A DNA stretch of 64,000 nucleotides, from positions 2,144,001 through 2,208,000 of the forward strand of contig OY970067.1 of the NCBI GenBank assembly GCA_963705305.1, written 5' to 3'. Source of the DNA: an uncultured Methylomirabilota bacterium (GTDB taxonomy: Bacteria; Methylomirabilota; Methylomirabilia; Methylomirabilales; 2-02-FULL-66-22). Positions 6,624 to 37,034 of the stretch are shown one piece after another (the first letter of the stretch is position 1; each line of letters begins with the position of its first letter). A program made the position numbers and the translations under genes. Under the pieces are notes generated by a model. The model ran no database searches and was not told where the DNA came from. It was given only the letters and a program-made list of their open reading frames with translations.

Positions 6624-7766
6624 GTGGTGAAGCCGGCTCGGCCCCATCGCTTTCACACGGCCTTGCGGGTAACGAACGCCGCGGGCTTCCTCTTCAACTC
6701 GTCGAGCGCGTTCTTCCTCCTGTTCCCCATCTACCTCCAGCAGCAGGGCAGCTCCCCCGCCCAGATCGGCCTCGTCGTCGGCCTCCTCCGGGCGGGCTCG
6801 CTAGTCGCCCGCCCGCTGGGGGGCCGGCTCCTAGACCGCCTCGGCCGGCGCCGGGTGATTGAGGTCGGCGCGCTCGTGGCCCTGCTGGCGATCCTGTCCC
6901 TCTTCGTGTTCCCGCAGGTCGGCGGGCCCTTCCTGCTCCTGCGCGTTTTCCAGGGGATCGGGACCTCGTGCATCGACTCCGGGCTGGGCGCGGTGGTGGC
7001 CGACCTGGGCCCGCCCGGCGCACGGGCGCAGGTGTACGCCATCTACACTGTCTCGATCAACCTGACCTCGGCCGTCATGCCCGGCCTGGGGGAAGCCCTC
7101 ATCCGCTGGGCGGGGTTCTTCCCCCTGTTCGGGGCCGCGGCCCTCGCCCTGGCCGCCTGCTTCCTCCTGGTCCTGCGGCTCCCGGAAACGGCGCGGCCGC
7201 GCGTAGAGCGACCGGCGGCCCGGCCGGGGCTCCCGCCCGGCTCGGGCCCGCTCCTGCTGGGGAGCCTGCTGGTCGGGTGGGTCTTCGGCACCCTGTCAAC
7301 CTTCGTCCCCGTGGCCCAGATCGCCGCCGCCCCGGGGCGGGTCGGCCTGTTCTTCTTCGCGTATTTCGCCGGGCTGTTGGCTGTGCGGCTGGCGGGGGGC
7401 CTCGGGGTGAGCCGCCTGGTGCAGCCGACGATGCTCCTGCCCGCGTACGGGGCCCTAGCCATCGGCTTGGCGGCGCTGCCCCTCGGGCATGGCGTGCTCC
7501 GGTTGGTCTTCGTCGGGCTCACCTGCGGCGCTGCGCATGGGGTGGTCATGCCAGTCCTCTATGGCATGCTCCTCGTCGGGCTGTCCCGCGATCGCCGGGG
7601 GTGGGCCGTGGCGCTCTACTCTGGGGCCTACGACCTGGGCGTGGTCCTGGCCTCTGCGGGCCTCGGAGTGATCGCGGAGGGGATCGGCTACCGCGGCATC
7701 TTCGTGGTGGCGGCGGTTGTCATGGCCCTCGGGGCGGGGGCGGCCCACCTGTGGGGGCAGCGGTAA
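6624..7766 (+). CDS. MFS transporter
   Basis: GGRLLDRLGRRR MFS motif A; about 12 hydrophobic segments. Confidence 0.85.
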   Translation: MVKPARPHRFHTALRVTNAAGFLFNSSSAFFLLFPIYLQQQGSSPAQIGLVVGLLRAGSLVARPLGGRLLDRLGRRRVIEVGALVALLAILSLFVFPQVGGPFLLLRVFQGIGTSCIDSGLGAVVADLGPPGARAQVYAIYTVSINLTSAVMPGLGEALIRWAGFFPLFGAAALALAACFLLVLRLPETARPRVERPAARPGLPPGSGPLLLGSLLVGWVFGTLSTFVPVAQIAAAPGRVGLFFFAYFAGLLAVRLAGGLGVSRLVQPTMLLPAYGALAIGLAALPLGHGVLRLVFVGLTCGAAHGVVMPVLYGMLLVGLSRDRRGWAVALYSGAYDLGVVLASAGLGVIAEGIGYRGIFVVAAVVMALGAGAAHLWGQR

Positions 7767-8059
7767 GGGCCGTGCGGGATCGCAGGCGGAGCCGCCGCCG
7801 CGGCGGGCGGCCCCGTCAGAGCAGGTTTCGGGCCATGCCGCCCTCGGCTCGCTCTCCTTTCCCGTCGTAACCACGCTCCGACACCTGCCAGCGACCCGTC
7901 CCCCCGGGGACGGGGCGTGCCATCCATCCGCGGGAAACCCCGAGCCGCCGTAGTATGGAAATGGAATGCGGAGGGCAAGAACGGCGCGCGACTATTCTCA
8001 CGTCTGAAGGAGACGGCATCGATTCGAGTCCGAGCCGGCTCCCCGAGCGGGAAAAATCT

Positions 8060-10018
8060 CTAGCCGTTACACAAAGGTGTTGAATAGCGTCGGGGGTTGG
8101 AGTACAAACCCCTTGTGCTTACTGCGCCGAAGGGGAGCACTGCCCTCGAGAAGATTTCTTCCGTAGGCAAGACGCCGCGGATCCCGCCCCCTGCAGATGG
8201 GATCCAGGTGAACTTCTGTAAGAATCCCCGGTGCCCAAACTACGGGGTGCCGGCCCTTGCGTGGGTCTCGCGTACGCCCATCGCCTTCGGCGCGATCCAC
8301 GACCACTATGAACTGGACCGGGCCACCCCTCCGTCAGTGCCCCTCCTACACTGTCAGTTCTGCCGAGAAGAACCGCCAATCAAGAGCAATCGGGCCATCG
8401 CCGAGGAACAGCGACGACTGTTGGCATGCCTGCAGCTCCGCCCGGCCCCCGCCTGCCCTACCCTGGGGTGCGCGCACGGCAGCGTTCCCATCACCCGCGG
8501 CCCCGGCCATTACCAATCCTTCGGGAGGAGCCATTCGGGATCCCAGCGCTACCGCTGCAAGGCGTGCCATAAGACGTTCTCGGTGGGGATGGCCACGGTT
8601 CGGCAAAGAGCTCCCCATAAGAATCGGACGATCTTCAGCCTCTTGGTGAACAAGGCCCCGTTGCGCCGGATCTGCGAGGTGGCCAGCATCGCGCCGCCGG
8701 CCCTGTATGGCAAGGTGCGGTTTCTCGCGACCCAGTGCCAGGCGTTCATCGCCGAGCGGGAGCGTCGACTCCTCGATGGCTTGGCCTTCCGCCGGTTGTA
8801 TCTCGCGACCGATCGCCAGGAGTACATGGTGAACTGGTCCCAGCAAGCCGATCGCCGGAATGTCCTCCTCCATGCTGTCGGGACGGCCGACACCACCTCC
8901 GGCTACGTGTTTGGCGTGCACCTGAACTACGATCCGGCTCTGGAGCCTGCCGTGGTGGAGGCCGAGGCCCAGGCCTGTGGGGACTTGGGTGCGAAACGCC
9001 CCTTCCGCCGGTACGCCCGTTGCTGGCTCGCGGCGGATTACACGGAGGGCCTCCACCGGAAAGCTCGGCGAGGCCGCCGCGGGAAGGCGCCGCTGTCGGA
9101 GGAGATTCAGGCCACTTACGAGGAGGCGCTCGAGCGCGAGGATGTCGAGGCTTTTGAAGTCCAATCCCCGGATCGGCGGCTCCCGGCCAAGGGGATGCAG
9201 ATCCATGCCGAGTATACGCTCTACGGCCACTTCTTCTATCTGCGGGCGCTGTTCGGCGGGGTCGAGAAGCTCCGGTTCTTCCTCGATCAGGACTCGGGCA
9301 TGCGCGCCGCCTGCCTCGCCGCCTTCCAGCCGGAGATTGCCGCGCGCCGGGCGGACGCCTTCTACGTGCGGATCGCCTCCAAGCTGACGATCGCCGAGAA
9401 GCGCGCCGCCATCGCCGAGAGCCGAGCGGCCTTCCGGGCGGCGCGCCAGCGGCATCCCAGCCTCTCCGACACCGAGGTCAAGCTCCTTCTGATCAAAGCC
9501 CAGATGCGGGAAATGGCAACTCTGGGGAAATGGCAGGACAAGTGGCTGTCCCACCCCTTTCCCCACATGGGGGAGCCCCGCAAAGCCGTCTGCTGCCTCA
9601 CCGACTACGGGGACTACGACGAGGACCACCAGGCGTGGCTCTACAACAAGGCCTCCTTGCATGCTATCGACTGCTTCTTCATGCAGGTGCGTCGCCGGCT
9701 CTCGATGCTCGAACGACCCATTGCCTCGGCCAGCGCGCTCCAGCGAACCTGGTATGGGTACAGCCCGTACGATCCCGAGAGCATCGTGAGACTCTTGACA
9801 ATCTTCCGGGTCTACTACAACTACTGCTTGTCGGGCAGGGGAGGAACCACACCGGCCATGCGATTAGGGTTGGCTAAAGGAAGGGTGAGCCTCGAGGACA
9901 TTATCTACTTCTGACGCAATGTCGACGCAGCATCCCATCAGCCCTTTGGAAGCAGAGGGCGTTCCGTCTCCAGGCCAAAGGGGTCCGAACCGGATCAACA
10001 CCTTTGTGTAACGGCTAG
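8060..10018 (+). mobile_element. Insertion sequence, 1959 bp, IS1-like
   Basis: Perfect 24-bp TIR CTAGCCGTTACACAAAGGTGTTGA (8060-8083 / 9995-10018); 9-bp TSD GAAAAATCT (8051-8059 / 10019-10027); a single transposase ORF. Confidence 0.95.
8097..9914 (+). CDS. Large IS1-like transposase with multiple zinc ribbons (start codon uncertain, non-ATG)
   Basis: FCKNPRC, CQFC, CPTLGC; InsA-like GRSHSGSQRYRCKAC; acidic motifs LATDRQ, FFLDQDSG, HAIDCFF; C-terminal YYNYC...TPAMRLGL. Confidence 0.85.
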   Translation: MEYKPLVLTAPKGSTALEKISSVGKTPRIPPPADGIQVNFCKNPRCPNYGVPALAWVSRTPIAFGAIHDHYELDRATPPSVPLLHCQFCREEPPIKSNRAIAEEQRRLLACLQLRPAPACPTLGCAHGSVPITRGPGHYQSFGRSHSGSQRYRCKACHKTFSVGMATVRQRAPHKNRTIFSLLVNKAPLRRICEVASIAPPALYGKVRFLATQCQAFIAERERRLLDGLAFRRLYLATDRQEYMVNWSQQADRRNVLLHAVGTADTTSGYVFGVHLNYDPALEPAVVEAEAQACGDLGAKRPFRRYARCWLAADYTEGLHRKARRGRRGKAPLSEEIQATYEEALEREDVEAFEVQSPDRRLPAKGMQIHAEYTLYGHFFYLRALFGGVEKLRFFLDQDSGMRAACLAAFQPEIAARRADAFYVRIASKLTIAEKRAAIAESRAAFRAARQRHPSLSDTEVKLLLIKAQMREMATLGKWQDKWLSHPFPHMGEPRKAVCCLTDYGDYDEDHQAWLYNKASLHAIDCFFMQVRRRLSMLERPIASASALQRTWYGYSPYDPESIVRLLTIFRVYYNYCLSGRGGTTPAMRLGLAKGRVSLEDIIYF

Positions 10019-10118
10019 GAAAAATCTGGACACTGGAGGGAGGGAATTTAGGTGGCGTGAAGGATTAACGAATCGCGCCTCAGCGGCAGACCGGGGTGCG
10101 CGCCCCGCGCCGGGTGAA

Positions 10119-11039
10119 TCAGTGCCGCATGAGCACCGCCGCGGCGGGCCGGGACATCTTGCTGTTCTCGTGCGCCGCCCCCTGCACGACCTGGAGTTGC
10201 CACCCGAACGTGCACTTCAGCTCCGTGGCGCGGTGGCCGGCTTCCGTGAAAAAGTTCTGGCCGCGCTCGAAGCGGTAGGCGCCCTGGGCCATCGCCTGCG
10301 GCGTCTTACGGAGCTCTCTGTGGTTGGGGTCCGTGTCCCGGTCGCCGAGCATGAGAATAAATTCCCGACCGAGGCTCGTTTTCAGCGATTCCTCAGTGGC
10401 GGGAGAACCGCCGAGTCCGTAGGGAAAGTTGATGTCGAACCTCGGCATCGTGTACCACCCTGGATTGGCGGCCACCGCTCTGGCATACCGGGCGTCGGGC
10501 AGCAACAGCACGAGGCGATGCACGAACTGGCCGCCTTCGGAGTGGCCGTAGATGAAGTACTTTGCGCTCCGATTGCCGGTCGCCTCCCTGATGGAGTCGA
10601 AGAGATGCTCGATGACGCTGAACGACCACATCGACGCATCCTGAAGCTTGCCGTCCCTGCCGACGACGCTGGCGTAGGAATACCCGCCGCCGCCCCATCG
10701 TTCCGGGTCGAACAGCGGGGCGACCACCATGAATGCGTACTTGTCGGCATGCTCGATCCACGTGTCGCGATAGCCCTTGGCGTTCTTGCCATGGCCGTGC
10801 ATGACGAAGACGATCGGCGCCGCGTCCGGCTTGAGCCCCCTGGGCAGGTACGTGTAGACGGTGATCTCCTTCGACGGGTCGCCTTTCTCGTCTACGAAGG
10901 AGAAGCTGCCGGGTCCCGCGGCGATCCTGATCGTGGGGCCGGCAGCCGACACGGTCTGTGACCATATCAGCGTCCACACGAAAAGCACCAGCATCGGCCT
11001 GCACAGATGCGCGCGAGAAAGAAGATGTCTCACGGGCAT
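10119..11039 (-). CDS. Secreted alpha/beta hydrolase (esterase)
   Basis: PIVFVMHG, nucleophile elbow GHSEGGQ, C-terminal His; N-terminal hydrophobic signal. Confidence 0.8.
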   Translation of the reverse strand: MPVRHLLSRAHLCRPMLVLFVWTLIWSQTVSAAGPTIRIAAGPGSFSFVDEKGDPSKEITVYTYLPRGLKPDAAPIVFVMHGHGKNAKGYRDTWIEHADKYAFMVVAPLFDPERWGGGGYSYASVVGRDGKLQDASMWSFSVIEHLFDSIREATGNRSAKYFIYGHSEGGQFVHRLVLLLPDARYARAVAANPGWYTMPRFDINFPYGLGGSPATEESLKTSLGREFILMLGDRDTDPNHRELRKTPQAMAQGAYRFERGQNFFTEAGHRATELKCTFGWQLQVVQGAAHENSKMSRPAAAVLMRH

Positions 11040-11629
11040 GAAGTCCTCACAGAATAACAGCCCATCTGCTGAACCCGTCTGGACTCTGGAAACACAAGGA
11101 CTTACAGAGGGGGACTGACGAAGTGGGGATGTTATATGCTTTTCGCATAACACCCCGTGGATTGCAGGAGAGCAATCGGGCGAACCATCAGTGGGAGTGT
11201 ATCGCCGGGCTCACGGGCTGTCAACCACAATCCCGCCCCGTCGCAGCAGCCTGGCCGCTTACCAAACATGTTGACAGGCCGGACCGCAGGAGGCACCGGT
11301 GTGGAGAATTACACTCCCATTACCACAGGTTACGGCGCGCCCGCGCGGCGGGATGGCTGCGGAAGAATTGTTCCGGGAATGGCCAATTCTCCTCTGGCAT
11401 GCAAATCGTGCGCTTCCCTACAAATCGCACGGTGGCATCAACATTTTGGTGAACGGCTAGCGCAGGAACAGGAGGGGCGGAAAATATTCCCTGTAGGGCG
11501 TTGTTGACGGAGTGGAATTATCTGCCCGCCGTCCGCCGGGCGACGGGTAGGACGCGAGGTGCGGTCACCTGGGGCATCGACTAGAGAGGTGGAAGACTCC
11601 ACCGCCCGCCCGGTCGAGGTGGACGCTTC

Positions 11630-12520: not shown

Positions 12521-12735
12521 TTTGCGCGTCTCCCGAACCCCGAGCAAGCAGGACAGGATCGAACGAGCACCGGGGCCCTCAGGCCCAAGACGGTAGCAGG
12601 CTACCGGAAGAAGGTGCGCGGGTCAATGGAAGCGGTCAAGGCGCTCAGTTCGAGGCCGCCTCGGCTCCGCGGATATAGCAATTCTGCGCAATGAGAGGAG
12701 AAGTTTCTGCCGGGATGAAGGGTCAGGCGACTGGC

Positions 12736-35560: not shown

Positions 35561-35962
35561 GCGTAGCGGTCTGAAATCCGCCGGCTTTTCCCGAGCCCCT
35601 GGTCTGCACCAAGGCACCGGACCCGCGACGCCCGGACGGATCTGGGGGCCTGTGCGCCTCCGTGCGCACGGCGTGTCCCGTCCCGCCGCCGCAGTGTCCG
35701 GGCGGGCGGCCCGACGGCCGGAGATTCGTCGCGCGACGTTGGCTCAGGCTGCCCGATCTCCGCTCGGCCCTGGTCGGCAGTACCCCCGATTCTCGGACCG
35801 GACCTCCCCCCTCCCTGGTCTTGTATCCGTAGCCCCCCGTGTTACTGCGACGGGGGGCTTGCCGTTTGAACTCCGCAAGGAGAGGCGCTATATTCGCAGC
35901 CACCTTGCTGTGACCTCTGGTGTCGCGAGCCAGATGGCTTCCCTGCCATAGGAGGTACACCT

Positions 35963-36652: not shown

Positions 36653-36787
36653 GCGCTACCGGGCGTCGTGAGTGCGCGAGCGCCCGCACGATTGCAGGAC
36701 GAGAGCCGGCCCGCCGGACAGCGGTTTATACTGGACGCTCCGCTGTTGCGCTCGCGGGATTGTTTCCGACCAGTGCCCAGGTTTGCC

Positions 36788-36988
36788 CTACCCGCTACAC
36801 AAAGGTGTTGAAGATTCGCTTGTCAATAGGCGCGATTCCTCTGTGGTTACAGCGCATTCCGTCCTTTTCGGATTGAGCTGACATCGAGGAAGATTTCTTC
36901 CCCGACAAGGCGTTCCGATTCGGTCAACCAATTCATGCCGTTACTAGCGAAACGCCGACCGTTATCAACACCTTTGTGTAACGGCTAG
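36788..36988. mobile_element. 201-bp MITE sharing the ends of the IS at 8060-10018
   Basis: Right TIR identical (36965-36988), left TIR 22/24 (36788-36811); own 9-bp TSD AGGTTTGCC (36779-36787 / 36989-36997); no transposase. Confidence 0.93.
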
Positions 36989-37034
36989 AGGTTTGCCCTG
37001 CTTGGGGAGCCATGCGGGACTCGAACTGTGCACC

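Follow-up and report, generated by a model that had tools for sequence, protein, structure and literature searches.

The stretch of DNA considered here, 64,000 nucleotides from an uncultured Methylomirabilota bacterium (GenBank contig OY970067.1, positions 2,144,001 to 2,208,000; hereafter the window), contains a complete insertion sequence (IS) of 1,959 bp, at positions 8060-10018 of the window, with a single open reading frame (ORF) inside it (Table 1). The terminal repeats begin with CTAG and are 100% complementary over 24 nt, and the element is flanked by two copies of the 9-bp sequence GAAAAATCT, in agreement with an initial annotation made from the sequence alone, which had proposed a complete IS with perfect 24-bp ends, a clean 9-bp duplication and one 605-aa ORF coding for an atypical, IS1-like transposase. 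The motifs LATDRQ, FFLDQD, HAIDCFF and TPAMRLGL on which that proposal drew are all present, and the ORF has, as stated there, no upstream ATG, the first in-frame ATG being that of M165, downstream of all eight cysteines discussed below. Taken as a whole, the locus is likely to be best explained as an autonomous IS of an unclassified IS1-related family, with a DD[D/N] catalytic core and symmetric targets; the ends, the duplication, the fold class of the transposase, the partner miniature inverted-repeat transposable elements (MITEs) and the target bias are matters of observation.

Table 1. Features of the insertion sequence, its target and related sequences (positions in the window)
Feature	Position	Strand	Remarks
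Hotspot repeat, left half, interrupted by the IS	8006..8050	+	target CCC at 8041-8043
Target-site duplication, left copy	8051..8059	+	9 bp, GAAAAATCT
Left terminal inverted repeat	8060..8083	+	24 bp; inner TTGA = start of the -35 hexamer
Probable transposase promoter	8080..8108	+	-35 at 8080-8085, 17-nt spacer, -10 at 8103-8108; predicted from consensus
Transposase ORF, up to 605 aa	8097..9914	+	TTG; actual start non-ATG, probably within 8115 to about 8175
Zinc ribbon 1	8217..8363	+	C41, C46, C86, C89; metal binding inferred
Zinc ribbon 2, InsA-like	8454..8567	+	C120, C125, C154, C157; followed by helix-turn-helix, about 174-216; NF050000 28.7 bits, cut-off 28
D239, first catalytic Asp	8811..8813	+	strand 1 of the RNase H fold; 270/270 rows with residue
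D397, second catalytic Asp	9285..9287	+	end of strand 4; D 264, E 6, S 1 of 271
D525, preferred third catalytic position	9669..9671	+	D or N in the family; R532 at +7
E539, rival third catalytic residue	9711..9713	+	non-helical in the model
Right terminal inverted repeat	9995..10018	-	24 bp
Target-site duplication, right copy	10019..10027	+	9 bp, GAAAAATCT
Hotspot repeat, right half	10028..10066	+	triplet 10035-10037 = GGA, one mismatch to GGG
Hotspot repeat, unoccupied degenerate copy	12638..12723	+	nhmmer E 7e-8
201-bp non-autonomous MITE	36788..36988	+	one of the 18 near-identical copies; IS ends; 9-bp duplication 36779-36787 / 36989-36997; same position of another hotspot-repeat copy

The ORF can be opened at the TTG at 8097, but the full 605 aa are probably too long. 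A sigma70-like pair of hexamers (TTGAAT and TACAAA, 17 nt apart) starts inside the left repeat, at its inner end, and flanks this TTG on both sides, and among relatives of the element a strict test for the -10 hexamer is passed by 11 of 35 left ends, as against none of 35 right ends. Because the promoter brackets the TTG and relatives show this left-end bias, the real start should lie downstream, probably between 8115 and the conserved R28-x-P30 (about 8175). Non-ATG starts would be in keeping with the family at large: across 62 loci an in-frame ATG is available in 20, only GTG or TTG in 34, and only ATT or CTG in 8.

The AlphaFold2 model of the transposase (predicted local distance difference test, pLDDT, 93.6; predicted template modelling score 0.93) has a helix-turn-helix (HTH) at about residues 174-216, strands at 231-245, 255-265 and 271-276 and an insert to about residue 370; its C-terminal half has strands at 389-397 and 419-426, a second insert to about residue 521, and helices at 522-534 and 560-577. 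The transposase of ISCth4 (PDB 6xg8) is the top fold match (Z 12.3, root-mean-square deviation 4.0, 241 residues aligned), followed by Tn5 (Z 10.4, 5.8 and 274, respectively), and the one match in a viral structure library is an IS4-type transposase. The modelled protein is an RNase H-fold transposase that has two inserts, as well as an HTH and two zinc ribbons. The initial annotation had placed a single long insert between the first two catalytic Asp residues, which is found there, and had missed the second, at about 427-521; D239 and D397, its first two candidates, end strands 1 and 4 of the modelled RNase H fold. It had also counted four cysteine pairs. The eight residues concerned are 97-100% conserved (135-142 rows with a residue, in an alignment of 143), and most likely form two zinc sites and not four. 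When folded alone, the N-terminal 148 residues (pLDDT 84) match nothing above Z 3.3, reached by an NrdR zinc ribbon, so that ribbon 1 is left without an assigned fold, which is not evidence for a new one.

The third catalytic residue requires more discussion. At position 525 an alignment of 273 rows has D in 228, N in 24, E in 2, other residues in 5 and a gap in 14; 'DD[D/N]' would therefore describe the family better than the 'DDD' of the initial annotation, in which the first two residues are solid and the third lies in the expected helix. D525 is in the first turn of helix 522-534, with the conserved R532 at +7. A local hhalign alignment (probability, P, 96%) puts R532 on R209 of an IS1-like protein, so that D525 falls on the catalytic E202, and a weak IS1595 alignment also puts D525 opposite an E. 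From the model and these alignments, we hold it to be probable that D525 is the third catalytic residue. If not, the protein would be an ordinary DDE enzyme in which E539, in the motif LERP, completes the triad and D/N525 is structural, the element and its targeting being unchanged. Several observations weigh on that side: 240 of 257 rows retain E539, among them Tn7491 (see below) and 20 of the 24 rows with N525; E539-R540 falls on the 'ER' of IS1 in two of four profile alignments (one global, the other of the whole protein); position 525 is non-acidic more often than position 539 (28 as against 14 of 257 rows); and the spacing to a later YN motif, 39 in the IS1-like protein, is 36 from E539 and 50 from D525, the latter fitting if the low-confidence loop 541-550 contained an insert of about 11 residues. 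However, E539 lies outside any helix, in a part of the model with a pLDDT of 98, has no conserved K/R at +7, and gives way to G, S, Q, A, R, K or T in 14 rows, D525 being kept in 11 of them, whereas the string D525-x-F-F-x-x-x-R-R resembles the E-x-F-W-x-x-x-K-R of IS1595 proteins. An E539 triad is therefore unlikely, and D525 remains our candidate. The region of D397 aligns to IS1 or IS1595 with P under 1%.

The protein resembles several known families without clearly falling into any of them. IS1 elements have ends that start with GG and make target duplications of 8-9 bp. The present element shares with IS1 an InsA-like zinc ribbon and HTH (the latter found by hhalign at P 71%), the TPAM tail (P 89-96%) and the 9-bp duplication; it differs in a protein of about twice the length, a second zinc ribbon, two large inserts, D or N at the likely third site, a strong target selectivity, and ends that begin C[ATG]AG (TAAG in Tn7491) instead of GG. 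The NCBIfam profile for IS1, NF033558, matches 64 of 72 family members below its cut-off and the query, over ribbon and HTH only, with 34.1 against 100 bits, a strict cut-off given that two IS1-like comparators reach only 52.5 and 36.3; NF050000 matches 62 of the 72, the query barely above the cut-off. PF03400 (DDE_Tnp_IS1) gives no hit in the 72 members. Long single-ORF IS1-like transposases do exist, presumably those of the ISMhu11 group. IS1595, in which some subgroups have third residues other than Glu (DDNK and DDHK motifs) and the duplication is 8 bp, shares the layout of zinc ribbon, HTH and core (P 47%) and a similar helix motif with K/R at +7, but differs in its shorter proteins, in its duplication (9-10 bp in the present family) and in its catalytic domain, as detailed below; the family is labelled DDEK in an excerpt of PMC9778887. 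ISCth4 (IS256) and Tn5 are the best structural matches and share with the present protein an insertion that separates strand 5 from the last catalytic helix, but identity is only 10-13%, there is no whole-protein membership by hidden Markov model (HMM), IS256-type HMM hits being confined to the zinc motif, and the present protein has an extra insert after strand 3. The initial proposal of a divergent IS1-related family is thus upheld by the ribbon, the HTH and the C-terminal tail, and not by the IS1 and IS1595 profiles. In short, the element works like an IS1-related, site-selective IS, and membership of IS1 or of IS1595 is not shown.

No catalytic family of Pfam is hit by any of the 72 members; the Pfam and PDB sequence searches return weak zinc-finger matches only, and the Atlas neighbours are unnamed clusters, with PF03400 the nearest named one at 0.88. 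The family is large, with 955 proteins among 8,000 scored candidates. At 50% identity there are 1,655 representatives at E up to 0.001, many of which are probably mere zinc-motif matches, and 439 at 1e-30 or better. The 77 GTDB loci studied come from several phyla, and both ends were located near the gene in 36 of them, one of these (L048) being a false pair. The first four bases of the 72 ends are CAAG in 35, CGAG in 25 and CTAG in 12; these ends were picked with a consensus that favours such starts, and pairs found de novo gave the same ones. Other relatives have their ends further out and enclose passengers, each within a 9-bp duplication: L009 (4,573 bp) contains a type II restriction-modification pair, L013 a Fic protein and L015 an exonuclease.

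One distant member already has a name. Of the 133 plasmid records matched in a search, 100 contain a homologue of full length, mostly as one 650-aa ORF (WP_000163792.1) beside dfrG in Enterococcus, Staphylococcus, Listeria and Lactococcus; the whole element is present in 90 plasmid records, and its ORF also in two staphylococcal phages. According to an excerpt of PMC10763498, this dfrG element, first seen in Tn6198, was registered in 2023 as Tn7491, with an end sequence that agrees with the plasmid copies, a duplication of 9 bp and reported movement within genomes; in that excerpt we found neither a family, nor a catalytic motif, nor a target preference. Its ORF is homologous over its full length (E 2e-87; 281 bits on the family profile; 22.7% identity to the IS transposase over residues 36-605, E 1e-25), with D239 and D397 kept and N at position 525. 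At 12 loci Tn7491 measures 3,276 bp, with a duplication of 9 bp in 9, of 10 bp in 1 and none in 2 (one site). By sequence, the two elements belong to the same family: they share the order of domains, xxAG ends, the 9-bp duplication and, as in other relatives, hairpin targets (see below). Tn7491 differs in TAAG ends of 27-28 bp, in the N at position 525, in a small extra ORF upstream, in its passenger gene and in its Bacillota hosts, and it forms a long-branch pair with a Pontibacillus element in a quick tree. The family was thus rightly called poorly described in that no curated family covers its catalytic part, but less so in that a distant member had been named.

Could the family already be present in ISfinder, for instance as a subgroup of IS1595 by way of ISSsu9, or within the ISMhu11 group of IS1? 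Excerpts of two sources point that way, one linking dfrG to ISSsu9 and IS1595 (PMC8343405) and the other listing ISSsu9 as IS1595 (PMC11366657). Yet neither the 72 members nor the Tn7491 protein give a hit at E 0.01 to DDE_Tnp_IS1595 or to the IS1595 profiles of NCBIfam, and residues 512-605 align to IS1595 with P 0.8%, as against 94% for the IS1-like protein. In E. coli, ISSsu9 has been reported next to blaNDM as well (excerpt of PMC10160391), which suggests that such matches arise through a passenger gene. Moreover, the dfrG element was registered afresh, and its protein is still hypothetical or an 'insertion element protein' in RefSeq, as it is in the excerpts seen of PMC8638950 (Q4H3Y2) and PMC4432960. 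We consider an existing classification improbable. The literature searched, with most subscription papers outside the search, yielded no classification of the transposase, no description of its targets, and no account of this combination of traits, of the breadth of the family or of the link to dfrG. Judged by the Pfam and NCBIfam profiles and by that literature, we are dealing with an unclassified IS1-related family of several phyla that includes Tn7491.

Within the host genome the transposase is single-copy (tblastn with E up to 1 finds only itself), but its ends are not. Besides the IS, they are borne by 18 copies of a 201-bp MITE and by 3 further MITEs (201-221 bp), and left ends stand alone at 4 places; the exact 24-mer occurs 20 times, at the two ends of the IS and at one end of each of the 18 MITEs, so that the element is not a product of chance. 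The 18 MITEs represent two sequences, 13 identical and 5 identical copies that differ at 7 positions, and the 9-bp duplication is perfect in 16, mismatched in one and missing in one. One MITE splits 1 of the 26 copies of a 1.52-kb repeat, probably an IS1380-type element; in each of five empty copies inspected the 9-mer is present once, hence the duplication arises on insertion. The recent insertion proposed initially is borne out in the sense that these traces (near-identical MITEs with the ends of the IS, empty alleles, multiple sites) support recent activity. For the IS itself an orthologous empty site was not found in 20 genomes of the genus; a contig from another run, about 94% identical, begins to match exactly at 8060 and has a different flank. 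Most likely, the enzyme behind the recent spread of the 18 MITEs came in trans from the single intact IS. Against this, only a 23-nt patch of the MITE interior matches the IS, which means that the MITE stems from a relative of this IS and that a relative since lost could have moved the MITEs. The same comparison rules out that the MITE is a simple deletion derivative of this IS copy, and stops in all six frames rule out in-frame coding.

The targets follow a different rule in the host genus and in most relatives. In the host genus, the sequences around the IS and the 18 MITEs suggest the target tCCCa-N6-[9 bp]-N6-tGGGa, with CCC and GGG 23 bp apart. Counting outward from the ends, CCC occupies -19 to -17 in 33 of 38 half-sites (an offset chosen from the same data among 14 tried), as compared with a genome frequency of 2.9%, and is present on both sides at 14 of the 19 sites. 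The best fit is a repeat of about 95 bp that is dispersed in the genome (31 hits with nhmmer, halves counted) and acts as a hotspot, one position of which accounts for 7 of the 19 sites, that of the IS included, and is also occupied in four other genomes of the genus (G163, G204, G206 and G079); in G163 two different family members lie there in tandem, with one copy of the duplication between them. Among relatives, flanks were available for 32, of which 14 have an exact 9-bp and 5 a 10-bp duplication. After removal of three duplicates, of L048 and of the tandem L001, 21 distinct duplicated sites are left, with 9 bp in 16 and 10 bp in 5. A stem centred on the duplication scores at least 8 at 17 of these sites (1.9% of 2,854 control positions), and a centred stem with an A/T tract is found at 16 (0.2% of the controls), the duplication lying within 1 bp of the hairpin centre in most relatives. 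These targets look like intrinsic terminators. For Tn7491 the centred hairpin score is at least 11 at 6 of 10 distinct duplicated sites, the 99th percentile of the background being 9.5, and at most 5 at two.

Not all of the evidence is so favourable. In sister genomes no more than 12 of 23 half-sites have CCC, TCC standing in 3 others; the independent copy of about 94% identity has no CCC at the target position; 13 of the 32 relatives have no exact duplication; and kin are over-represented, so that the 21 sites are not 21 independent events. Furthermore, the sites of the host genome are not hairpins (stem 5.35 versus 4.74 for the background, which led us to reject hairpin targeting for them), and a single mechanism must then cover two types of target. 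Selection or ancestry could in principle create the bias, through survival in harmless intergenic hairpins or within one repeat; terminators are neutral sites, 7 of the 19 insertions share one repeat family and the sampled relatives are kin, but outside the repeat 21 of 24 half-sites keep CCC at its fixed distance, some of them inside long ORFs and inside another IS, and selection gives no base-level register such as the centring on hairpins, which makes this explanation very improbable. A location at the 3' ends of tRNA genes was also rejected, since no site adjoins a tRNA found by ARAGORN, and no Rfam match was obtained in the window or at 11 flank loci. Insertion into intrinsic-terminator hairpins is documented for IS1272 and TnSha1 of the IS1182 family, IS1272 deleting part of the hairpin without making a duplication (excerpt of PMC4923244). 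The present family, in contrast, duplicates a loop of 9-10 bp, and no sequence relationship to IS1272 was found. As terminator targeting is known from IS1272 and a third residue other than Glu from IS1595, neither trait is new on its own.

The most likely mechanism to accommodate these observations starts from a symmetric transpososome, in which the 24-bp ends would be bound by the HTH and one or both zinc ribbons of the transposase. Cutting would be carried out by the RNase H core, with D239, D397 and D525 (N in some members), the last in place of the usual Glu, and the ends would be joined to a two-fold symmetric target with a stagger of 9 bp, sometimes 10 bp. Contacts 8-10 bp outside the duplication would account for the register of CCC and GGG. 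A similar symmetric reading, of sequence or of an extruded hairpin, would account for the centring on terminators elsewhere, the target in most relatives and in Tn7491 being the loop of the terminator hairpin. The extra ribbon and the two inserts are candidates for reading the target. As to the pathway, we favour, at about an even chance, one like that of IS1 or IS256, which copies the element and leaves adjacent deletions, over pure cut-and-paste; lone ends, mismatched flanks and tandem insertions fit it, but assembly errors or recombination between copies give the same picture.

Some further observations concern the repeats and the ends. The hotspot repeat occurs at about 20 genome sites besides 8006-8059, 10019-10066 and 12638-12723 of the window, without an Rfam match. 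Degenerate hairpins resembling attC directly follow several copies, the clearest cases being those at G000 507159 and 5220673, and an integron integrase at G000:C1:851892-854377, in two frames and with one TGA, has an attC at 851892, a second attC being at 2519051. At two copies (1617937 and 1269677; compare G000:C1:2156638) a different shared sequence begins at the insertion position, possibly another element that uses the same site. A short hairpin repeat with a C-run and a G-run holds in its loop two rarer MITE types with variant ends (G000 1828265 and 5636896; G206:C44), and an unoccupied copy of this repeat is found at 35835-35857 of the window; hairpin-type and motif-type targeting thus occur in one genome. 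A truncated left end, 91% identical to the IS (G000:C1:2108146-2108226), is fused to a copy of the hotspot repeat, and the empty twin of that copy is at 961358. Tandem elements with exactly one copy of the 9-bp duplication between them (L105:1538-3458, in G163, and G000 531996-532206) suggest that an element re-inserted next to an end already present. The IS and the four MITE types all have in common a 12-bp palindrome, some 89 bp inward of the left end (8149-8161 in the window; about 100-112 in the MITE), as a possible binding site; with up to 2 mismatches the pattern recurs in 24 of 62 relatives, no further than 220 bp from their left end. A small upstream ORF of 80-98 aa, unmatched in Pfam and NCBIfam, is present in the Bacillota members L078 (5509-5805) and L080 (2569-2811), where it might code for a regulator or for a helper in targeting. 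In the window, the IS lies between genes for a major facilitator superfamily transporter (6624-7766, plus strand) and a convergent polyhydroxybutyrate-depolymerase-like esterase (10119-11153, minus strand), both assignments being under family cut-offs; neither gene appears interrupted.

In its widest form, our proposal is that of an unnamed, multi-phylum IS family, Tn7491 included, which uses D-D-D or D-D-N instead of DDE, recognises symmetric targets at a fixed distance, and has switched its specificity between the terminator hairpin and CCC-N23-GGG, probably by means of the extra zinc ribbon or the inserts; we give this full version an equal chance of proving right or wrong. One consequence concerns dfrG, the trimethoprim resistance gene spread among staphylococci and enterococci by Tn7491, whose carrier would gain a probable enzyme class, a family and a target rule that may aid annotation and surveillance. 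Passengers such as the restriction-modification pair indicate that the family moves genes and yet escapes standard IS annotation. A natural Asp or Asn at the position of the Glu, if true, makes the role of that residue directly testable, and close relatives with different symmetric targets amount to a natural experiment in the choice of sites, of interest for tools that integrate DNA at safe sites.

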